Origin: Gammaproteobacteria bacterium | GTDB lineage: Bacteria > Pseudomonadota > Gammaproteobacteria > JAABTG01 | Reading direction: 5' to 3' | Length of the DNA stretch: 38,614 bases | NCBI GenBank assembly: GCA_030066245.1 | Contig: JASJBY010000026.1 | Coordinates: forward strand, 1 to 38,614 | In this document: positions 5,724 to 37,616 of the stretch, in pieces | How positions within the stretch are numbered: position 1 is the first letter of the stretch | How the letters are laid out: each line of letters opens with the position of its first letter | The notes under the pieces: generated by a model | Seen by the model: the letters and a program-made list of their open reading frames with translations, nothing else | Told to the model about the DNA's origin: nothing | The model's database searches: none | Position numbers and translations under genes: made by a program

Positions 5724-6533
5724 TCACGCAGTTGGGTCAGCACCGCCGGACAACCCGAAGAAGACGCGGGCGGTCTCGGTGGTCCAGCCTGCCACGTATT
5801 CGCGTTCGTAGCCCAGCGCATCGCTGACCGCCTCCAGCACGGCGGGCAGGAACGCCGGCTCGTTGCGCCTGTCCTTGGGGCGGGGCGTCAGGTTGCGGGG
5901 CAGTATGTAAGGGGCGTCGGTCTCCAGCATGAGACGGTCGGCGGGGATCTGGGCTATCAGATCCCGCAGGTGCAGCCCGCGGCGCTCGTCACAGATCCAG
6001 CCCGTGATCCCCACATGAAGATCCAGATCGCGGCAGGCGGCCAGCTCGTCGCGATCGCCGGTGAAACAGTGCAGGACGGCCCTGGGCAGACGGTCGCGGT
6101 AGCGTTCCAGCAGGGGGAAGAATCGCCGCCGGGCGTCCCGCTGGTGCAGGAAGACGGGCATGGCCCGGTCACAGGCGAGCTCCAGCTGGGCTTCGAAGGC
6201 CCGCTCCTGGTCCGGTCGGGGGCTGTAGTCCCGATAGAAGTCCAGCCCCGTCTCCCCCAGGGCGACCACCTCCGGAGTGGCGGCCAGCTCCGCCAGCCGG
6301 CTGCCCGTGGCGTTGGTCCATTGCTTCGCGTCGTGGGGATGCACACCGGCGGTGCTGGCGAGCACCCCGGGGTGGCGGCTCGCCAACGCCTGGGCTGCCT
6401 GACTTGCCTGCAGGTCGGTGCCGGTGACCACCATCTGCACCACGCCTGCCTCTGCGGCGCGCTCCATCACCGCCGGCAGATCCCGGCGGAAGGACGAGTG
6501 GGTCAGGTTAGCCCCGATGTCAATGAGCTCCAC
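5724..6533 (-). CDS. tatD: TatD-family metal-dependent hydrolase/DNase
   Basis: ELIDIGANLTHSSF resembles the E. coli TatD N-terminus (MFDIGVNLTSSQF, from memory). It is followed by typical TatD His/Asp/Glu-containing blocks (GVHPH, FLHQRDA, ETDAPY). I trimmed the start to the GTG at 6533. The 401-aa track ORF extends upstream only because no stop codon occurs there. Confidence 0.8.
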   Translation of the reverse strand: MELIDIGANLTHSSFRRDLPAVMERAAEAGVVQMVVTGTDLQASQAAQALASRHPGVLASTAGVHPHDAKQWTNATGSRLAELAATPEVVALGETGLDFYRDYSPRPDQERAFEAQLELACDRAMPVFLHQRDARRRFFPLLERYRDRLPRAVLHCFTGDRDELAACRDLDLHVGITGWICDERRGLHLRDLIAQIPADRLMLETDAPYILPRNLTPRPKDRRNEPAFLPAVLEAVSDALGYEREYVAGWTTETARVFFGLSGGADPTA

Positions 6534-6672: not shown

Positions 6673-7065
6673 ATGAGCTTGGACCATCCCCAGATCGCCG
6701 AGCTGAAGGCGCACCTGCAGGAGCGCTTCGAGGCACTGCGTGAAGCGGTCAGGCAGGAGCTGCTGCAAAGTGACCGCGAGCAGTACGTGGCCCTCGCGGG
6801 CGAGGTGGCGGACCCCGGGGACGCGTCCATGGCGGACCTGCTGGCGGACCTCAATCTGGCCGTCATCGATAACCACATCAACGAGATCCAGGCCGTGGAG
6901 CAGGCGTTGATGCGGATGGCCTCGGGCACCTACGGGCTGTGCGCCGATTGCGAGGAGCCCATCGACCCGGCACGCCTCCAGACCCAGCCCGCGGCGAAAC
7001 GTTGCGTCCACTGTCAGACGCGTCACGAGCAGGCAACGACGCCGGCGGCCCGTGTGTCCCTGTGA
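6673..7065 (+). CDS. DksA/TraR-family C4 zinc-finger protein
   Basis: Coiled-coil N-terminal part followed by a CADCEEPI...RCVHCQ (CxxC-N17-CxxC) zinc finger. Start placed at the ATG at 6673 (MSLDHPQ), which is preceded by GGAG. Confidence 0.8.
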   Translation: MSLDHPQIAELKAHLQERFEALREAVRQELLQSDREQYVALAGEVADPGDASMADLLADLNLAVIDNHINEIQAVEQALMRMASGTYGLCADCEEPIDPARLQTQPAAKRCVHCQTRHEQATTPAARVSL

Positions 7066-7199
7066 AAGCCTGGCGGGCCGCCGGGGGCCTTCCTGCCGGC
7101 AGCTGGAGCAAGCCCCTAGGTGGACGGTCGCGACAGCGCTGACCCGGCATCCCTACTGCTAAACTGACAAGTCTTGATCTCGCAGCGGAGACCGGGCTG

Positions 7200-15616: not shown

Positions 15617-15925
15617 CTACTTCTTCGCCGTGGCCGGCTGCTGTACGATCACCGGAGCGGTCATGGCGTACGGATAGCCGTAGCCACCCCAGCCGGGATA
15701 GCCGCCCCAGCCATAGCCGGGATAGCCGCCCCAGCCGTAGCCAGGATAGCCGCCCCAGCCGTACGGGCCGCCCCAGCCCCAGGGGCCGCCGCCCCAGCCG
15801 TAGCCGCCCCAGCCATAGCCGCCCCACCAGGGGCCGCCACCGAAGAAGGCATTGGCGCTCTGCAGGGGCAGAAGCGCAGAGCCTGCCACCACAGCCGCCG
15901 CCAGGATTACCGAGATCTTCTTCAT
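15617..15925 (-). CDS. small secreted Gly/Trp/Tyr-rich repeat protein, sulfur-globule-protein-like
   Basis: 102 aa. Signal peptide MKKISVILAAAVVAGSALLPLQSANA. The mature part consists almost entirely of G, W, Y and P, with GWGGYPGY repeated three times. RBS AAGGGAGAG upstream and a terminator downstream. Confidence 0.75.
   Translation of the reverse strand: MKKISVILAAAVVAGSALLPLQSANAFFGGGPWWGGYGWGGYGWGGGPWGWGGPYGWGGYPGYGWGGYPGYGWGGYPGWGGYGYPYAMTAPVIVQQPATAKK
15695..15766. repeat. 3 x 24-nt tandem repeat inside the CDS, encoding GWGGYPGY
   Basis: The three units are GGGATAGCCGCCCCAGCCATAGCC, GGGATAGCCGCCCCAGCCGTAGCC and AGGATAGCCGCCCCAGCCGTACGG, read directly from the + strand. Confidence 0.9.
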
Positions 15926-31301: not shown

Positions 31302-32579
31302 ATGCTAATCGAAATAATCATTCTGCTCGTGCTATTCGTGCTCTCGGGGTTCTTCTCGGGCTCCGAGACGGCACTGACTACCGTCAGCAAGGCGCGCGTC
31401 AGCGCCTACCTATCGCAAGGGCGCACCGGCGCCAAGGCGCTGGATAAGCTGAAGTCCAACACCAACCGGATGCTGGTGGCCATCCTCATCGGCAACAATC
31501 TGGTCAATATCGCTGCGTCGGCCATGGCCACAGTCATCGCCACCAACATGTACGGCGACGTGGGAGCGGGCCTGGCCGTTGGTGTGCTGACGATTATCAT
31601 CCTGGTCTTCGGTGAGGTGACGCCCAAGACTTTCGCGGCGCGCCACGCGGGCCCCATCTCCTTGTTCGTCTCGACACCGCTGCGGCTATTTTCCATCGTG
31701 GCGATGCCGCTGGTCTGGGTTCTCGAGCAGCTCACGGTGCTGCTTCACCGCCTGTCCCGGGCCAGGACCGAGCCGACGGTCACCGAGTCGGAACTCATTC
31801 ACATGTCCGAGCATGGCGCGCTGGAGGGTACCATCGAGGTCGACGAACACAAGATGATCAAACGGATCTTCGCCTTCGACGATCTGCTGGCCCAGGACGT
31901 AATGATTCCGCGGGGTCAGGTGTTCTTCCTGGATGGTGACCGCAGTATCCGGGACTCGCTGCCGGAAATTCTGGCGAATCCCTACATGCGCCTTCCTCTG
32001 ACCTCGGGAAACGAGGATGAGATCACCCATCTGGCCTATCTCCGGGAAGTGCTCCAGGCGGTGGTCAACGGCGAGCTCGACAAGCCGCTTAAGGACGTGG
32101 GGAGCGCCCAGCCCCTCTACGTTCCGGTCAACCAGCCAATCGAGGAGCTGTTTTCCACTCTTCGACAAGACTCGAGCCGGCTGGTGGTAGTCGTCAACGA
32201 GTATGGCGCCATGGAGGGTGTGTTTACCCTGGAGGACATGCTCGAGGAGCTGGTTGGTGAGATTCACGATGAGCTCGACAGACCCCCGCACCAGACCAGA
32301 GAGGTTCACGAAGGCGAGCTGCTGGTGGAGGGTACCCAGGAGCTTCGGGTGGTGGAAGATTTCCTCGGAGTCGATCTCATGGGTAAGGCCACCGATCCCG
32401 TGAGCCTGTGGATACTGAATCACACCGAGTACATTCCTTCGGTCGGCGAACGCTTCACCATCGACGGCTTGGATGTGGTGGTGGAGAAGGCCTCGCGGCG
32501 CCATGTGAAGCAGGTGCGTATCACACGGAGCGGCGGCAATATCAGAATCGAAGCACTGGAGGACGAGGAGTCATCCTAA
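31302..32579 (+). CDS. CNNM/HlyC-CorC family transporter (DUF21 + CBS pair + CorC_HlyC)
   Basis: N-terminus IIILLVLFVLSGFFSGSETALT (DUF21), CBS-like middle region, and a C-terminal transporter-associated domain. Confidence 0.85.
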   Translation: MLIEIIILLVLFVLSGFFSGSETALTTVSKARVSAYLSQGRTGAKALDKLKSNTNRMLVAILIGNNLVNIAASAMATVIATNMYGDVGAGLAVGVLTIIILVFGEVTPKTFAARHAGPISLFVSTPLRLFSIVAMPLVWVLEQLTVLLHRLSRARTEPTVTESELIHMSEHGALEGTIEVDEHKMIKRIFAFDDLLAQDVMIPRGQVFFLDGDRSIRDSLPEILANPYMRLPLTSGNEDEITHLAYLREVLQAVVNGELDKPLKDVGSAQPLYVPVNQPIEELFSTLRQDSSRLVVVVNEYGAMEGVFTLEDMLEELVGEIHDELDRPPHQTREVHEGELLVEGTQELRVVEDFLGVDLMGKATDPVSLWILNHTEYIPSVGERFTIDGLDVVVEKASRRHVKQVRITRSGGNIRIEALEDEESS

Positions 32580-32649
32580 ACATAGCTTCTCGGAAATATC
32601 GATCAAAAAACGGCGATACAGTTGGTGTCGGATCCGGCCGGGGCGTTGG

Positions 32650-32696
32650 CTCCGCTAAATCTCGCCAGGCGTTCCATCGCCTGGCGAGAAGCGGAG
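32650..32696. repeat. long perfect hairpin: 7 + 12 bp stems and a 6-nt loop
   Basis: CTCCGCT-aaa-TCTCGCCAGGCG-ttccat-CGCCTGGCGAGA-AGCGGAG, about 70 nt downstream of the transporter stop. No U-tract follows. Confidence 0.7.
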
Positions 32697-32939
32697 TTGC
32701 CGAGCTTAAGCTCTCCCTGCGCCGCTCGCCATCTACGCCGCTACGCCAACACCCCCACCGGGTCAGCTCGTAGCGTATTTCGAATCAGCCATCTCGCCTG
32801 AAGGAAACACTCAAAACCGGGGGCGGTGCACCCAGGGAGCGGCTGCACGGCAGATGACAGCGGGCCGGTATCAGGCCGGCAAAGGGGAGCCGGTCACGGA
32901 CGGCGGGACGCTACATGCGGTGCACAGACTATCGTTGGT

Positions 32940-33734
32940 ATGCAGCAATATCTTGACTTGATGCGACACGTGCGTGTGCACGGTACCCGCAAGGAGGACC
33001 GTACCGGTACCGGAACCTTGAGCGTGTTCGGCTACCAGATGCGCTTCGATTTGTCGGCGGGGTTCCCAGCGCTGACCACCAAGAAACTGCACCTGCGCTC
33101 CATTATCCACGAGTTGCTCTGGTTTCTGAGTGGCGACACCAACGTGGCCTATCTGCGAGAGAACGGGGTCAGCATATGGGATGAATGGGCGGACGAAAGT
33201 GGTAACCTCGGCCCCATCTATGGCCATCAGTGGCGGTCCTGGCCGGCCCCCGACGGTCGGAGCATTGACCAGGTGCAGCAGGTGCTGGAACAGATCCGTG
33301 AGACGCCCGATTCCCGCCGCATCATCATCTCGGCCTGGAACGTCGGAGAGCTGGATAGGATGGCCTTGCCGCCGTGCCACGCCTTCTTTCAGTTCTATGT
33401 GGCGGATGGGCGACTATCCTGTCAGCTGTACCAGCGCAGCGCCGATATTTTTCTCGGTGTGCCTTTCAATATCGCCTCATATGCCCTGTTGACCATGATG
33501 ATCGCGCAGGTGAGCGGTCTGGTGCCGGGTGATTTCGTTCATACCTTCGGCGATGCCCACCTGTATCTCAACCACCTGCAGCAGGCCGACCTGCAGCTCA
33601 GCCGTGAACCCCGAACGCTGCCCCGGATGCGGCTGAATCCAGACGTCACCTCTTTGTTCGACTTTCGATACGCTGACTTCGAGCTGCTGGACTACGACCC
33701 TCACCCCCACATCCGGGCGCCGGTGGCGGTGTAG
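32940..33734 (+). CDS. thyA: thymidylate synthase
   Basis: [26 protein letters not shown], catalytic-Cys block [12 protein letters not shown], 264 aa. Confidence 0.95.
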
Positions 33735-33738
33735 GGAA

Positions 33739-33862
33739 GGGAATAGTGACTAGTGAATAGTGAGCAGTGACTCGTGAAGCGGGGGAAGCGAAGATGGTAG
33801 ACGGTAGATGGGGGAAGAAAAGCGTAGGGCGTAGGTTGTGGATCGTATGTCGTAGGTCGGGG
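33739..33862 (+). repeat. G-rich, C-poor heptamer-periodic element, copy 1 (starts 5 nt after the thyA stop)
   Basis: Blocks of 7-nt tandem units: (nnGTGAn) x5, GATGGTA/GACGGTA/GATGGGG, and CGTAGGG/CGTAGGT...CGTATGT/CGTAGGT. Only about 15 C in roughly 166 nt by my count. Confidence 0.85.
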
Positions 33863-34009
33863 AAAAGCGGGGGAAATGGGGAGATGGGGGCTTCGTTGGG
33901 CAGAAACGCGGCGACCTGGTTGTGCGTGACTCGATTACAACGGAAAAGCAGAGAGGCTGGCGGCCTGGCTTGACCCAGTCATGGAAGCAATCGTGCCCTC
34001 GCTGACCGC

Positions 34010-34555
34010 ATGCGTATCTCACTGATCGCCGCGATGGACCGGAATCGCCTCATTGGGGCCGAGAACCGTCTGCCGTGGCACCTGCCGGCCGATCTGCAGC
34101 ATTTCAAAGCCTTGACTATGGGTAAGCCCATTATCATGGGCCGCCGCACGTTCGAGTCCCTGGGGCGGCCCCTGCCTGGCCGCCACAATATCGTGATTAC
34201 CCGGGACAGCGCCTTCGGCGCAGAGGCGTGCACCGTGGTGCATTCTGTAGAGCAGGCACTTGCGGCGGCAAGCCGCCACCCGGAGGCGATGGTGATCGGC
34301 GGCGCAGCGCTCTATGGCCAGCTCCTGGCTCGAGCTGAGCGGCTCTACCTCACGCTCGTGGACGGTGAATTCGAAGGGGACGTTTTCTTTCCTGCCCTGG
34401 CGGCAGATGAGTGGCGCGAAATTGAGCGTCAGAACCGCGACGCCGACGTACGCAATCCCTACGCTTTCAGCTTCGTCGTCTTGGAGAGAGTCCGAGATGT
34501 CAGTACCTCGAAAGCCTCGAGCGGCAGCCTTTCAGCTTCCAACCCTGCCTCATGA
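34010..34555 (+). CDS. folA: dihydrofolate reductase
   Basis: ISLIAAMDRNRLIGAENRLPWHLPADLQHFKALTMGKPIIMGRRTFESLG is a classic DHFR N-terminus. The protein is 181 aa and has a Ser-rich C-terminal tail. Confidence 0.9.
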   Translation: MRISLIAAMDRNRLIGAENRLPWHLPADLQHFKALTMGKPIIMGRRTFESLGRPLPGRHNIVITRDSAFGAEACTVVHSVEQALAAASRHPEAMVIGGAALYGQLLARAERLYLTLVDGEFEGDVFFPALAADEWREIERQNRDADVRNPYAFSFVVLERVRDVSTSKASSGSLSASNPAS

Positions 34556-34623
34556 GAATGATCAACCACCGGCAACACGGCGACTTCTCCAGTCAGTTGG
34601 TTATGGCCTCTTCCGAGTGGCTT

Positions 34624-34735
34624 CCCGACCTACGACCTACGCTTTTTCCTCCCCCCATCTACCGTCTACCATCCACGCTTCCCCCGCTTCACGAATTCAC
34701 GAGTCACGAGTCACGCTTCACGACCCACGATTCCC
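34624..34735 (-). repeat. heptamer-periodic element, copy 2, inverted (starts about 9 nt after the apaH stop on the minus strand)
   Basis: Its reverse complement matches copy 1 in exact blocks. 34676-34693 matches 33773-33790 (18 nt). 34652-34673 matches 33793-33814 (22 nt). 34624-34634 matches 33851-33861. Confidence 0.85.
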
Positions 34736-34743
34736 GTCCCCGA

Positions 34744-35616
34744 CTACTCCCGCCCCCGAATTCTGGTTCTGTGAATGCGTAGATCCCGCGGCCTTTGCCA
34801 ACCATGGCAGGGATGGTCCACATAGTGACCCTCAGGGAGCCGCACCGCCGTCAGCCGACCACCCCAGACGCAGCCGTTGTCCAGCGGCAGAATGCGGTGA
34901 CTCGCGTCGACCCGGCCGTTCAGCTGCAGGGTCGACCAATGACCGAAGACGATGGTATCACCGCGGCTCCGCCTGCCCGGCACGGCAAACCAGGGCAAGT
35001 TCCCGGATTTCTGTCGACCCAGGGGCGCCTTCTCCTTCAAGGCCAAGCGGCCGTCTGGGTGGCAATATCGCAGACGGGTCAAACAGTTGGTGATGAACCT
35101 GAGCTTATCCCAGCGCTCCAGGCCGGGCGCCCACATGTCGGGTGTATCACCGTACATGCGCCTGAAGTATGCGGGGTGATCGGGGCCACGCAGGGTGGTC
35201 TCGAGCTCTTGGGCACACTGTTGCGCCTGGGCCAGATCCCACTGGGGGGGCAGACCGGCATGTATCAGAACGAGTCCATTGGCGCGATGGAGTACCGGGC
35301 GATGGCGCAACCAGTGGAGCAGCTCTTCCCGGTCGTGAGCCAGCAACACACTGTCCAGGGTGTCCTTGCCGCGACGCTGGTTGCCGGCGCCCCCGGCTAT
35401 CGCCAGCAGATGCAGGTCGTGGTTGCCGAGTACCGTGACCGCGGCGTCTCCGAGACTCTTCACGAAGCGAAGGACTTCTACTGACTGCCCGCCTCGGTTG
35501 ACCAGGTCGCCCGTGAGCCAGAGGCGGTCCTTGCCCCGGTCGAACTGGATGATGTCCAGCAGCGTCCGCAACTCGTCGTAGCATCCCTGGATGTCGCCGA
35601 CGGCGAAGATAGTCAT
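34744..35616 (-). CDS. apaH: symmetrical bis(5'-nucleosyl)-tetraphosphatase
   Basis: Metallophosphoesterase motifs GDIQGC, GDLVNRG and GNHD. Synteny with apaG and a convergent folA matches my recollection of the E. coli arrangement. Confidence 0.9.
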   Translation of the reverse strand: MTIFAVGDIQGCYDELRTLLDIIQFDRGKDRLWLTGDLVNRGGQSVEVLRFVKSLGDAAVTVLGNHDLHLLAIAGGAGNQRRGKDTLDSVLLAHDREELLHWLRHRPVLHRANGLVLIHAGLPPQWDLAQAQQCAQELETTLRGPDHPAYFRRMYGDTPDMWAPGLERWDKLRFITNCLTRLRYCHPDGRLALKEKAPLGRQKSGNLPWFAVPGRRSRGDTIVFGHWSTLQLNGRVDASHRILPLDNGCVWGGRLTAVRLPEGHYVDHPCHGWQRPRDLRIHRTRIRGRE

Positions 35617-35659
35617 CGCTCAGGACGGTCTTGGGCTGAGGAGCACCGGCGTGGCCTGG

Positions 35660-36046
35660 TCAGTGCAGGGTATGGGGGATCGACAGGCTGAAAGCGGGGA
35701 TTTCGGCATCGAAGTGGAATCCGTCGTCGGCCACCATCTGGTAGCTGCCGTGCATGCTGCCGACCGGTGTCTCAATCATCGCGGCGCTCGTGTATCGGAA
35801 ACCCTCGCCCGGCTGCAGGTGCGGCTGTTCGCCGACTACGCCCTCACCGCGGACCTCCTGCACATGGCCGTTGGCGTCGGTGATGATCCAGTGTCGCGTC
35901 AGTAAGCGCGCCGCGACGGTGCCCACGTTGCGTATCGTGACCGTGTAAGCAAAGACATAGCGATCTTCGTCCGGCTCCGACTGCTCGTCGACGAAGTCCG
36001 TCTCCACCGCGATCTCGATGGTGTAATGGCTAGGGTTACTCAACAT
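35660..36046 (-). CDS. apaG: ApaG (DUF525) protein
   Basis: 128 aa. YVFAYTVTIRN.G......L..RHW.ITD..G....V.G.GVVG.QP.L.PG..F.Y.S is the ApaG signature. Confidence 0.9.
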   Translation of the reverse strand: MLSNPSHYTIEIAVETDFVDEQSEPDEDRYVFAYTVTIRNVGTVAARLLTRHWIITDANGHVQEVRGEGVVGEQPHLQPGEGFRYTSAAMIETPVGSMHGSYQMVADDGFHFDAEIPAFSLSIPHTLH

Positions 36047-36107
36047 GCCTTAAATTTGACCGCAAACCGGAGCCCGGTTGCAAGGTGTTCCCCACAAGTC
36101 GCCGGAG

Positions 36108-37616
36108 CTAGGCCGGGGCGCGGTCAAGACTGCGGTAGCCGATGGCTTCACTAAGATGTCGCCCCTCGATCCTGTCGGCGTCTGCCAGATCCGCGATGGT
36201 GCGCGCGACCCTGAGCACCCGATGCCATGCCCGGGTCGAGAAGCCGAGGCGTTCCACCGCGGTCTCCAGCAAGCCCCGCTCCGCCGGTCCCAGGGAGCAA
36301 TGATGCTCCGTTTCGCCCGGCGCTAGCCAACTGTTGGCCTTGCCGGCGCGGGCGTACTGTCGTTCGCGGGCCGCGACCACGCGCTGTCTGACCTCCACGC
36401 TGCTCTCAGCGGCGCGGGACTCACCGGCGTAGAGCTCTGTCCTGGGCACTCGAGGCACCTCGATATGGATGTCGAAGCGGTCCAGAAGTGGTCCGGAGAT
36501 CTTTCCCAGGTAGCGGCGTGTCTCCTCCGGTGTGCAGTCGAAATCCCGGCCGGTGCCGAGATGCCCGCCTGGACAGGGATTCATGGCCGCTACCAGCTGG
36601 AACCTTGCCGGAAACTCTTCCTGACGGGCGGCCCGGGAGATGGTGATGGCGCCCGACTCCAACGGCTCGCGCAGCACGTCCAGCACTCTTCGGTCAAACT
36701 CCGGAAGCTCGTCCAGGAACAGAACGCCGTTGTGGGCCAAGGAAACCTCGCCCGGCCGGGGCACGCTGCCGCCACCCACCAGCGCCACGCTGGACGCCGT
36801 GTGGTGCGGGGCGCGAAACGGTCGCCGTCCCCAGTGCTCCGGTTGGAAGCCGTGGCCGCAGATGGATTGCACGGCCGCCGTTTCCAGCGACTCGCTCTCC
36901 GTCATCGGTGGCAGGATGCCCTGCAAGCGACTGGCGAGCATGGTCTTACCTGTTCCCGGCGGTCCGATCATGAGCAGGTTGTGTCCCCCGGCTGCCGCGA
37001 CTTCCAGGGCACGCTTGGCCTGATACTGGCCCCGCACTTCGGCCAGGTCTCCCAGTAGCTGCGGTTCTTCGGTCGCTGTTTCCGGAGGCTGCCGTTCGAT
37101 GGGCGTCGTGCCTGAGAGATGACCGCACACTTCCAGAAGGTGGCTGGCCGGGAGTATCACCGCGTCCTGCACCAGGCTTGCCTCCGGTGCGTTTTCCCGG
37201 GGCAGCAGCAGATGGCGGCCGGCCGATCGGGCCTGGAGCGTGACCGGCAGCGCCCCGCGCACGGATCGCATCTCCCCGGACAAGGCGAGCTCCCCAAGAA
37301 ACTCGTGCCGGCGCAAGGGCGCCCGCGCCAGCTGCCCGGAGGCGGCCAGGATGCCGATGGCAATCGGCAGGTCGAAACGGGTCCCTTCCTTGGGCAGATC
37401 GGCGGGCGCCAGGTTGACCGTGATGCGGCGCAGAGGGAACTCGTAGCGCGAGTTGATGAGGGCGCTGCGCACCCGGTCCTTGCTCTCCTTGACCGCGGTC
37501 TCCGGCAGTCCCACAAGCGAGAAAGCAGGCAGGCCGTTGGTCAGATGCACCTCCACGGTGACCAAGGGGGCCTGCATCCCCACCTGGGCACGGCTGAACA
37601 CGACCGCCAGCGACAC
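36108..37616 (-). CDS. comM: YifB/ComM family Mg-chelatase-like AAA+ ATPase
   Basis: 502 aa. Lon-protease-like N-terminal domain (GLPAFSLVGLPETAVKESKDRV), Walker A GPPGTGKTM, and FLDELPEF. Confidence 0.9.
   Translation of the reverse strand: MSLAVVFSRAQVGMQAPLVTVEVHLTNGLPAFSLVGLPETAVKESKDRVRSALINSRYEFPLRRITVNLAPADLPKEGTRFDLPIAIGILAASGQLARAPLRRHEFLGELALSGEMRSVRGALPVTLQARSAGRHLLLPRENAPEASLVQDAVILPASHLLEVCGHLSGTTPIERQPPETATEEPQLLGDLAEVRGQYQAKRALEVAAAGGHNLLMIGPPGTGKTMLASRLQGILPPMTESESLETAAVQSICGHGFQPEHWGRRPFRAPHHTASSVALVGGGSVPRPGEVSLAHNGVLFLDELPEFDRRVLDVLREPLESGAITISRAARQEEFPARFQLVAAMNPCPGGHLGTGRDFDCTPEETRRYLGKISGPLLDRFDIHIEVPRVPRTELYAGESRAAESSVEVRQRVVAARERQYARAGKANSWLAPGETEHHCSLGPAERGLLETAVERLGFSTRAWHRVLRVARTIADLADADRIEGRHLSEAIGYRSLDRAPA

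Follow-up and report, generated by a model that had tools for sequence, protein, structure and literature searches.

Two inverted heptamer arrays enclose folA

We analysed a 38.6-kb stretch of DNA (the window) from an uncultured marine-sediment gammaproteobacterium, in which folA (dihydrofolate reductase, 181 aa; 34010-34555, + strand) lies between two inverted copies of a composite intergenic array of 7-nt units. Copy 1 (33735-33862, +) trails thyA (thymidylate synthase, 264 aa; 32940-33734, +; stop codon TAG at 33732-33734), and copy 2 (34621-34743, -) trails apaH (290 aa; 34744-35616, -; stop codon at 34744-34746), which is adjoined by apaG (128 aa; 35660-36046, -). The gene order, with arrowheads for direction, is thyA>folA><apaH<apaG. 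Gene identities are Pfam matches of identical proteins on public contigs (PF00303 Thymidylat_synt for ThyA, DHFR_1 for FolA, Metallophos for ApaH and DUF525 for ApaG), and the neighbourhood as a whole encodes MlaC, PurU, CorC, ThyA, FolA, ApaH, ApaG and ComM. FolA is an essential housekeeping enzyme and also an antifolate target.

The two copies have the same blocks in the same order, mirrored. Copy 1 has an (nGTGAnn)5 array (33744-33777, from Tandem Repeats Finder, TRF, and alignment), continues with the core that it shares with copy 2 (33772-33821, containing an 18-mer at 33773-33790 and the units GATGGTA/GACGGTA/GATGGGG at 33793-33814), and ends with CGTAGGT-like units (33823-33861), all on the + strand. 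The corresponding blocks of copy 2, on the - strand, are the CGTAGGT units at 34624-34641, a 22-mer at 34652-34673, the 18-mer at 34676-34693 and a GTGAnnn array at 34685-34733. An inverted-repeat search returned four arm pairs: 33772-33821/34645-34694 (50 nt, 92% identity), 33734-33778/34696-34740 (45 nt, 78%), 33818-33836/34628-34646 (19 nt, 95%) and 33844-33861/34624-34641 (18 nt, 94%). The 18-mer and the 22-mer occur twice each in the window, once per strand, where chance would give 0.04 and 0.00 occurrences. An earlier reading of the DNA, made from the letters only (the sequence-only reading), had listed shared exact blocks of 18, 22 and 11 nt; all three are present, the last (AAAAGCGTAGG) being seen in the alignment.

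The 7-nt periodicity is specific to the two copies. Period-7 arrays found by TRF in the window are limited to 33744-33777, 33823-33859, 34626-34641 and 34697-34723, and identity at a lag of 7 nt is 0.60 in copy 1 and 0.57 in copy 2, against ~0.26 in folA. A single 7-nt register runs through 23 units of copy 1 (33735-33895), with a column-majority fraction of 0.553 (shuffles, 0.471 +/- 0.012). Because one register spans all 23 units, the apparent spacers between the sub-arrays of copy 1 are degenerate heptamers of one array. On the folA side the register extends beyond the inverted-repeat arm (33859-33900, +); this extension holds the only canonical G-quadruplex (G4) motif of that side (GGGGAAAAGCGGGGGAAATGGGGAGATGGGGG) and goes with folA in the inverted form described below. 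The folA 5' region (33863-34009, +) is weakly conserved and likewise travels with folA. A promoter is presumed there, and a consensus scan of 32500-36200 gave no sigma-70 match in it.

Strand composition is equally distinctive. Copy 1 contains 9.7% C, and copy 2, read on the + strand, 12.5% G and 46.4% C (over 112-123 nt), close to the ~9% and ~12% that the sequence-only reading had counted; an absolute GC skew above 0.45 over 120 nt is reached nowhere else in the window. Copy 1 is G-rich on the sense strand of thyA, while copy 2 is G-rich on the sense strand of apaH and C-rich on that of folA. The G-rich strands carry 6, 2 and 5 stop codons in the three frames of copy 1 and 3, 3 and 3 in those of copy 2; the C-rich strands carry 0, 0 and 1 and 0, 0 and 0. 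Alignment, TRF and these stop counts bear out the earlier description: the copies are inverted, 7-nt-periodic and non-coding, and each follows a stop codon with its G-rich strand in the sense of the preceding gene. They begin within 0-8 nt of the stop codon, and the homology itself starts directly past that of thyA and 3 nt past that of apaH, slightly nearer than the 5-9 nt given earlier. In the sequencing runs X3, X5 and X7, thyA ends GCG GTT TGA (window 33730-33734), and the TGA opens a GTGA-type array (TTGAAGCGTGATTCGTGAAGCGTGAAACGT). Because this TGA belongs to the first GTGA-type unit, the array supplies the thyA stop codon in those strains. A stop codon contributed by the array is also seen in many arrays of other phyla, at distances of -4/-11 or -5/-12.

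We rejected a coding role for the arrays: the open reading frames (ORFs) at 33767-33973 (+), 34552-34782 (+) and 33750-34022 (-) have no Pfam match, and since 7-nt indels between strains more than 99% identical shift any frame, the arrays are non-coding. The ORF at 34552-34782 (76 aa) overlaps the folA stop codon in ATGA, crosses copy 2, and is called as a gene on contig L006 (1518-1733). We regard this call as spurious because the C-rich strand lacks stop codons and the frame shifts with a 7-nt indel; for annotation in general, the stop-free C-rich strand of such arrays is a source of spurious ORFs.

The folA cassette occurs in both orientations

The 0.77-kb cassette formed by folA and its 5' and 3' flanks (33852-34625) occurs naturally in both orientations, with breakpoints within the innermost CGTAGGT tracts. 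Following the suggestion of the sequence-only reading that folA might be inverted or absent in relatives, the inverted form was found in sister lineages, on contigs L005 and L089 and on a Logan contig of the sediment run X2. The order on L005 is apaG>apaH>(hybrid)>folA><(hybrid)<thyA. Of its two hybrid arrays, one consists of the apaH-proximal part of copy 2 followed by the folA-5'-proximal end of copy 1; in the other, the thyA-proximal part of copy 1 meets the folA 3' flank. Because the arrays on L005 are hybrids, the exchange points lie in the innermost CGTAGGT tracts (~33824-33851 and ~34626-34684). The thyA-side inverted junction is present in all three independent assemblies, the apaH-side junction on L005 alone. 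In the X2 contig (depth 4.66), position 33851 is joined to 34626 on opposite strands; L089 is window-like through folA and then enters reverse thyA at 92% identity. In X2 and L089, contigs of the window form and of the inverted form do not differ in the body of folA. Runs X5 and X8 contain the folA 3' flank as loose ends, which do not prove an orientation.

An assembly artefact was rejected as the source of the inversion, given three assemblies, junction 31-mers that are arm-specific on both sides, and exact sharing between the arms of at most 22 nt. As the arms share no exact 31-mer, k-mer collapse is unlikely.

The arrangement thyA>folA><apaH<apaG is found in 19 of 80 folA loci of relatives and apaH>folA> in none of them, which argues that the window form is ancestral and the flip derived. 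FolA identity in these 80 loci is at most 64%, the genome collection having no close relative, and the elements are absent from them. Inverted repeats around folA were likewise absent from the 80 loci, except for REP-like (repetitive extragenic palindromic) hairpins in a Methylophaga metagenome-assembled genome (MAG).

Homologous recombination between inverted repeats such as rrn operons or insertion sequence (IS) copies inverts chromosomal segments. The folA locus resembles those cases in that the segment exists in both orientations, the breakpoints lie inside the repeats and the resulting repeats are hybrids. It differs in that the repeats are ~125 nt long, 78-92% alike and composed of microsatellite-like units, and in that they enclose a single 0.77-kb housekeeping gene. 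The Hin/Gin and Fim invertible elements include a recombinase gene, whereas the neighbours here encode CorC, ThyA, ApaH, ApaG and ComM; Pfam detected no recombinase among the neighbouring genes, and the invertible segment carries folA only.

We consider it very unlikely that the locus is a programmed switch, in which a site-specific recombinase would toggle folA between thyA-driven and apaGH-driven read-through. Such a switch would account for the presence of both orientations in nature, of both junction types within one sediment sample (X2), and of an identical folA body in contigs of either form. It is at odds with the lack of a recombinase gene nearby, with arms that are long, degenerate and variable where short conserved core sites would be expected, and with lineage-specific array changes at the junctions. 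The flanks of the inverted-form contigs are 1-8% diverged from the window, and lineage-level fixation fits this divergence better than a fast switch does.

Units vary among strains and the composite element is seen in two copies

The number of units varies in 7-nt steps between strains. The GTGA array of copy 2 has 5 units on contig L002, 6 in the window, 12 on L005 and ~15 on L094, and the CGTAGGT tract ranges from 2 to ~10 units. One indel could be followed among contigs nearly identical to the window: the GTGACTC unit at 34697-34703 (-) is present in the window and on L092 and missing from five of six near-identical window-form contigs. It is absent from L002, L003, L004, L006, L007 and the X2 contig.

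In the sequence covered, the composite element occurs in two copies only and shows no sign of being a dispersed family, by the counts of the 18-mer and 22-mer and by metagenome depth. Neither the rest of the window nor ~10 kb of further sequence of this organism contains another period-7 array. In four sediment metagenomes, extra depth (3-15x) falls on the GTGAnnn sub-arrays and none on the central GATGGTA/CGTAGGT part. A search of JGI metagenomes with a 17-mer core gave, among the matches listed, ~120 chance hits and the element only at its own locus (L281, the same contig as L006), so that this search carries little weight.

Described families of mobile or palindromic repeats were examined and rejected. 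REP sequences and bacterial interspersed mosaic elements (BIMEs) are imperfect palindromes of 20-40 nt with a stable hairpin, and neither copy contains one; each copy folds no better than shuffled sequence (z scores of -0.37 to +1.88). REP/BIMEs are also high-copy and associated with a RAYT transposase, traits that bear on a whole genome; in the window and the extra sequence two copies were seen, and the neighbouring genes encode no transposase. Miniature inverted-repeat transposable elements (MITEs) are set apart by terminal inverted repeats, which the copies lack; the copies are flanked by the thyA and apaH stop codons and show no target duplication. The enterobacterial repetitive intergenic consensus (ERIC), an imperfect palindrome of ~127 bp with a conserved core from enterobacteria, differs by its description, as there is no palindrome in either copy and the host is from marine sediment. 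In an inverted-repeat search neither copy held an internal inverted repeat, a palindrome or terminal inverted repeats, and Rfam gave no match for the whole window at the gathering threshold or for 32400-34900 at E<=1.

An origin of the arrays as MITE, REP/BIME or ERIC-like mobile elements, or of folA with its arms as a transposed cassette, is accordingly hard to credit. A gene flanked by inverted terminal copies has the outline of such a cassette, and the thyA-folA spacer seems to be a hotspot of repeat insertion in other lineages (L043, L072, L015 and L030; see below). The absence of a palindrome or terminal inverted repeats in each copy (z -0.4 to +1.9), of a target duplication, and of an Rfam match all speak against it. 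So does the lack of a third copy, whether in the window, in the ~10 kb of extra sequence or as a depth excess of the central part in the four metagenomes, and the gene order is the ancestral one.

The arrays belong to a known class of heptamer repeats

The elements are a homologous pair of composite heptanucleotide simple-sequence-repeat (SSR) arrays, and fall in the known class of intergenic heptamer SSRs. The sequence-only reading had not recognised the family; the claim of novelty fails, as heptameric SSRs are already in the literature (PMC4692102, PMC4679880) and the units seen here make up arrays in many phyla. What is new here is the unit sequences, the host, a convergent pair that encloses a gene, variation in 7-nt steps among near-identical strains, and the inversion of folA.

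Many bacterial genomes contain more heptameric tandem repeats than expected, with neither a function nor an origin established for them (PMC4692102, PMC4679880). Rehm et al. (2015, PMC4692102) described intergenic G-rich arrays of GGGAATC (or GGGANTN) units in Xanthomonas and of GGGGA(C/T)T units in Nostoc PCC 7120. They lie on average 28 nt from the 5'-neighbouring ORF, are on the coding strand when downstream of an ORF and sometimes overlap its stop codon, form 70-75 convergent pairs per genome and vary extensively in length (PMC4692102). GGGAATC arrays form G4 in vitro, and no regulatory role was found for arrays of this type (PMC4692102). The same paper cites three heptanucleotides, the short tandemly repeated repetitive (STRR) sequences, from Calothrix (ref. 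39 in PMC4692102). TAACTGA repeats are known in Beggiatoaceae, where a post-transcriptional role was proposed; they comprise 2-6 identical units, mostly just upstream of start codons (MacGregor 2015, PMC4679880).

The folA arrays share with the Xanthomonas and Nostoc SSRs their tandem 7-nt units, perfect or heterogeneous and of unexplained function, an intergenic position within tens of nt of the 5'-neighbouring ORF and on the coding strand downstream of it, convergent plus/minus pairs able to form stem-loops, and length variation between close relatives. They differ in their units (nGTGAnn, GATGGTA and CGTAGGT, not GGGAATC), in combining several unit types whose order is fixed and recurs mirrored in the other array, and in their marginal G4 potential. 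Furthermore, a whole gene lies between the pair here (tens of nt in theirs), only 2 arrays occur in ~48 kb, and the enclosed gene is inverted. At least four closely spaced G-tracts and a GGGAATC/GGGGAYT unit, which are absent here, define a G4-forming subclass and not heptamer SSRs in general. Of the features of the general class, 7-nt tandem units, an intergenic non-coding location, a G-rich strand that is the coding strand just downstream of an ORF, and variation in unit number are found at the folA locus. Members of the class also have many dispersed copies per genome; the ~48 kb covered here hold the two arrays, and the same unit types are high-copy in other genomes.

STRRs of heterocystous cyanobacteria (Calothrix/Nostoc) are dispersed families of non-coding tandem heptamers with several unit types and a high copy number per genome. 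The folA arrays resemble them as non-coding tandems of different heptamers, and differ in phylum, unit sequences and the high copy number of STRRs. We are not aware that inverted composite arrays bracketing a gene, or an inversion, have been reported for STRRs. In the TAACTGA repeats, intergenic heptamer direct repeats with stop codons occur in sulfur-oxidising Gammaproteobacteria and other phyla, as here (PMC4679880), whereas the folA arrays trail stop codons, are heterogeneous and composite, and form an inverted pair.

Arrays of the same units in other genomes

Species-representative genomes were scanned for (GTGANNN)5 and (CGTAGGT)3, with at least 120 loci for each. The (GTGANNN)5 matches listed come from Planctomycetota, Acidobacteriota, Chloroflexota, Cyanobacteria, Bacteroidota, Verrucomicrobiota and other phyla. 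Among the intergenic arrays listed, 51 of 102 have the end of a same-strand ORF within 50 nt upstream, and the mirror case, with the 3' end of a gene against the C-rich side, applies to 8 of 102. For (CGTAGGT)3 the corresponding numbers, again among the matches listed, are 50 and 11. Some MAGs of Gemmatimonadales, Thermoanaerobaculia and Gammaproteobacteria have many (CGTAGGT)3 loci per genome, with at least 15 in one Gemmatimonadales MAG. Opposite-orientation pairs are convergent in 11 of 12 cases among the matches listed; ten convergent CGTAGGT pairs with 42-122 nt between the arrays fold into predicted hairpins of -84 to -213 kcal/mol, and several convergent pairs have composite arms of CGTAGGT and GTGAAAn units.

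The exact 22-mer has a single other locus in the species-representative genomes, on contig L001 from a sand Gammaproteobacteria MAG, where a GATGGTA-type array containing the identical 22-mer is predicted to form a hairpin of -50.7 kcal/mol directly 3' of the serC stop codon. In 135 GTGANNN arrays (L095-L214), the base before GTGA (unit position 7) is T in 5% and A in 44% of units, and the arrays are purine-rich overall. On contig L376 (Gemmatimonadetes MAG S09.Bin022), composite arrays (6133-6320 and 7035-7070) begin at the stop codon of a GGDEF/EAL-like ORF. There, (TCGTTGG)3(TCGTAGG)4...GTGAAGC has its mirror image, (TTTCACG)n(TAACGAC)6, after the convergent gene, and the gene that comes next is followed by a third array; these are the unit types of the window, in another phylum.

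The flanks of folA contain repeats of other kinds in relatives. GTTTTAC/GTAAAAC heptamers lie in the thyA-folA spacer or folA flanks on L072 (3925-3998), TAACTGA x6 directly before folA on L015 (3958-3998), a long hairpin with GGATGAA units in the thyA-folA spacer or folA flanks on L043 (3800-3985), and REP-like hairpins on either side of folA on L030 (3898-3930 and 4525-4557). This region seems to be a repeat hotspot in Gammaproteobacteria.

Possible roles of the arrays in RNA

The RNA transcribed from folA into copy 2 is C-rich and G-poor, as the sequence-only reading had noted, and is predicted to be essentially unstructured, with a minimum free energy (MFE) of -6.3 kcal/mol per 125 nt (z +1.59). 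Rho utilization (rut) sites are C-rich, G-poor and unstructured RNA. Copy 2 on the folA sense strand has the composition of such a site, which extends over at least 70-80 nt with little structure, and a consensus scan of 32500-36200 found no site resembling an intrinsic terminator. A Rho-entry role for copy 2 is plausible because C-rich unstructured RNA follows folA and there is no intrinsic terminator. In the flipped form on L005, folA again runs into a C-rich strand. Like rut sites, the locus would offer ~125 nt of untranslated, C-rich, G-poor and barely structured RNA downstream of a gene for which no intrinsic terminator was found; it differs from them in its periodic heptamers and in having the complement upstream of the same gene.

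It is possible, if on balance doubtful, that function is primary and that the arrays are not neutral repeats but have been selected as strand-specific elements of transcription polarity. The C-rich strand would load Rho and halt transcription that runs convergent or antisense, from folA into apaH or, when flipped, into thyA, and the G-rich strand would shield the RNA trailing thyA and apaH from Rho, an idea that overlaps with the weaker part of the reading we favour (see below). It draws on the composition and unstructured character of the C-rich strand, the lack of an intrinsic terminator at the locus, the preservation of the property in both folA orientations, and the rule that the G-rich strand is the sense strand, which applies to two unit types across phyla and in Xanthomonas and Nostoc (PMC4692102). 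On the other side, folA and the arrays are outside the coverage of the RNA runs, depletion of C is not a feature of the whole class, this genome has few such arrays in the ~48 kb covered, and the very stable hairpins predicted for convergent pairs in other genomes would tie up the C-rich arm. Moreover, no regulatory role was found for related arrays (Rehm et al., PMC4692102).

The sequence-only reading had also pointed to complementary arms enclosing folA, and strong pairing is indeed predicted if both are on one RNA: the arm duplex has -164.7 kcal/mol (shuffles, -80 +/- 6.6), and the MFE structure of the 1011-nt RNA contains 93 inter-arm pairs. In a transcript that reads through from thyA (in the flipped form, from apaH), the arms might pair as a ~110-bp stem that excises or stabilises a monocistronic folA mRNA, like the RNase III-cut stems flanking 16S and 23S rRNA, or that hides the rut-like arm. 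The predicted duplex energy and inter-arm pairs favour this idea, as does an arm order mirrored as in the hairpin pairs of other genomes. We nevertheless judge it improbable, as 760 nt, including a translated ORF, separate the arms, co-transcription of thyA with folA is presumed, and the arms are 78-92% identical with indels and vary by many units, which selection for pairing would be expected to resist.

G-quadruplexes had been suggested from runs of G4-5. The canonical motifs lie at the edges of the arrays only, at 33859-33900 (+) and 34724-34757 (-), two of ~6 in the window, and none falls in the shared arms, so that the suggestion finds no support there. A binding array of the HutP type, (NAG-N4)3, was considered in view of the UAG at 7-nt spacing in copy 1 and rejected, since copy 2 has UCG there and HutP belongs to Bacillus. 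Overall, there is little to recommend an action of the arrays by way of G-quadruplexes or of a multimeric protein that binds them as RNA or DNA. The canonical motifs at both array edges, the UAG/CAG spacing of 7 nt in copy 1 and the G4 formed in vitro by related GGGAATC arrays (PMC4692102) would fit. The shared arms lack four closely spaced G-tracts, the NAG spacing is missing from copy 2, there is no candidate protein, and unit sequences vary freely between sub-arrays and strains.

Interpretation

We favour, with a probability of about 0.7, the reading that the locus holds a composite heptamer SSR pair whose units are changed by slippage and between which folA was inverted by homologous exchange, with a Rho-entry role as its weaker part. 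Units would be gained and lost by replication slippage, and recombination or gene conversion would uphold the likeness of the arms. General RecA-type homologous exchange between the inverted arrays would then have inverted folA, starting from thyA>folA><apaH<apaG. At the RNA level, where the strand asymmetry would act, folA in either orientation would be transcribed from the G-rich leader side into ~125 nt of C-rich, untranslated, rut-like RNA, while the G-rich, C-poor sense RNA behind thyA and apaH would be a poor Rho substrate and permit read-through into folA; we hold this part less firmly.

Several points weigh against this reading. With only two arrays in ~48 kb, a genome-wide 3'-end function in this species is doubtful. 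The metatranscriptomes X9 and X10 cover thyA, apaH and apaG thinly and neither folA nor the arrays, and a search of RNA-only runs was empty. Because its window-like folA runs into reverse thyA of 92% identity, L089 is probably chimeric between lineages. X2 also contains a window-form folA3'-copy 2-apaH contig (depth 4.25) and a single folA haplotype, and its contigs do not resolve clones. The inverted lineages have ~30 extra nt at the folA 3' flank (CTGGGTTGTAGATTCAGAGGGCGTGGGGCG), so the history involved more than one clean reciprocal crossover of window-like arms, and RecA dependence of the inversion is an assumption. At the level of the class, the ORF statistics use crude longest-ORF calls, and stop codons in all frames necessarily end +-strand ORFs that enter the arrays; even so, a stop codon lies upstream of the array in about half of the same-strand cases. 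The class is purine-rich and not consistently C-depleted, with C at 20% of the variable positions of GTGANNN.

The locus is a compact natural example of the dynamics of heptamer arrays, combining unit changes in 7-nt steps, mirrored composites and a flipped housekeeping gene; it is unusual in that folA sits in the loop of a convergent array pair. The side result from other genomes may outweigh the locus itself: two unrelated units in many phyla follow one rule, by which an array begins at a stop codon or close to it and has its G-rich strand in the sense orientation. This rule makes a strand-specific cause testable, whether related to transcription and Rho or mutational. Extrapolating from sequence, we speculate, as an unlikely extension, that stop-trailing heptamer arrays (including GTGANNN and CGTAGGT) could be a selected, cross-phylum 3'-end polarity element, a Rho shield in sense and a Rho entry in antisense. 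Convergent pairs would then be bidirectional insulators, and the folA pair a reversible cassette whose orientation would choose between thyA and apaGH read-through.

Other features of the window

The ~20 C-terminal residues of FolA (VRDVSTSKASSGSLSASNPAS, window 34490-34555) are unmatched in most relatives, which align over residues 1-160; this extension looks like growth of the reading frame into a former 3' flank. Contig L002 matches the window at more than 99.5% identity and follows its order only as far as 36116; from there it continues with Nqr/Rnf-type genes (L002 10620-14358) and not with comM. The break near 36116, upstream of apaG, is either a second structural difference beside the cluster or the mark of a chimeric contig.

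A tandem repeat at 15672-15838, with periods of 9, 15, 18 and 24 and a unit of about GCCGCCCCAGCCGTAGCC, lies within an ORF region and probably encodes, on the minus strand, a glycine-rich repeat of low complexity.

The corC-thyA spacer (32619-32795) is highly structured, with -77 to -85 kcal/mol over 148 nt (z -5.3 to -6.3) and a perfect 12-bp hairpin at 32660-32689. It has no Rfam match at E<=1 and is neither a tRNA nor a tmRNA. Metatranscriptome contigs of this element have a depth of 8-58, against 2-4 for thyA, and diverge from the window at 32789/32794, which places the element in other contexts as well. It may be a small RNA or a transcribed repeat.

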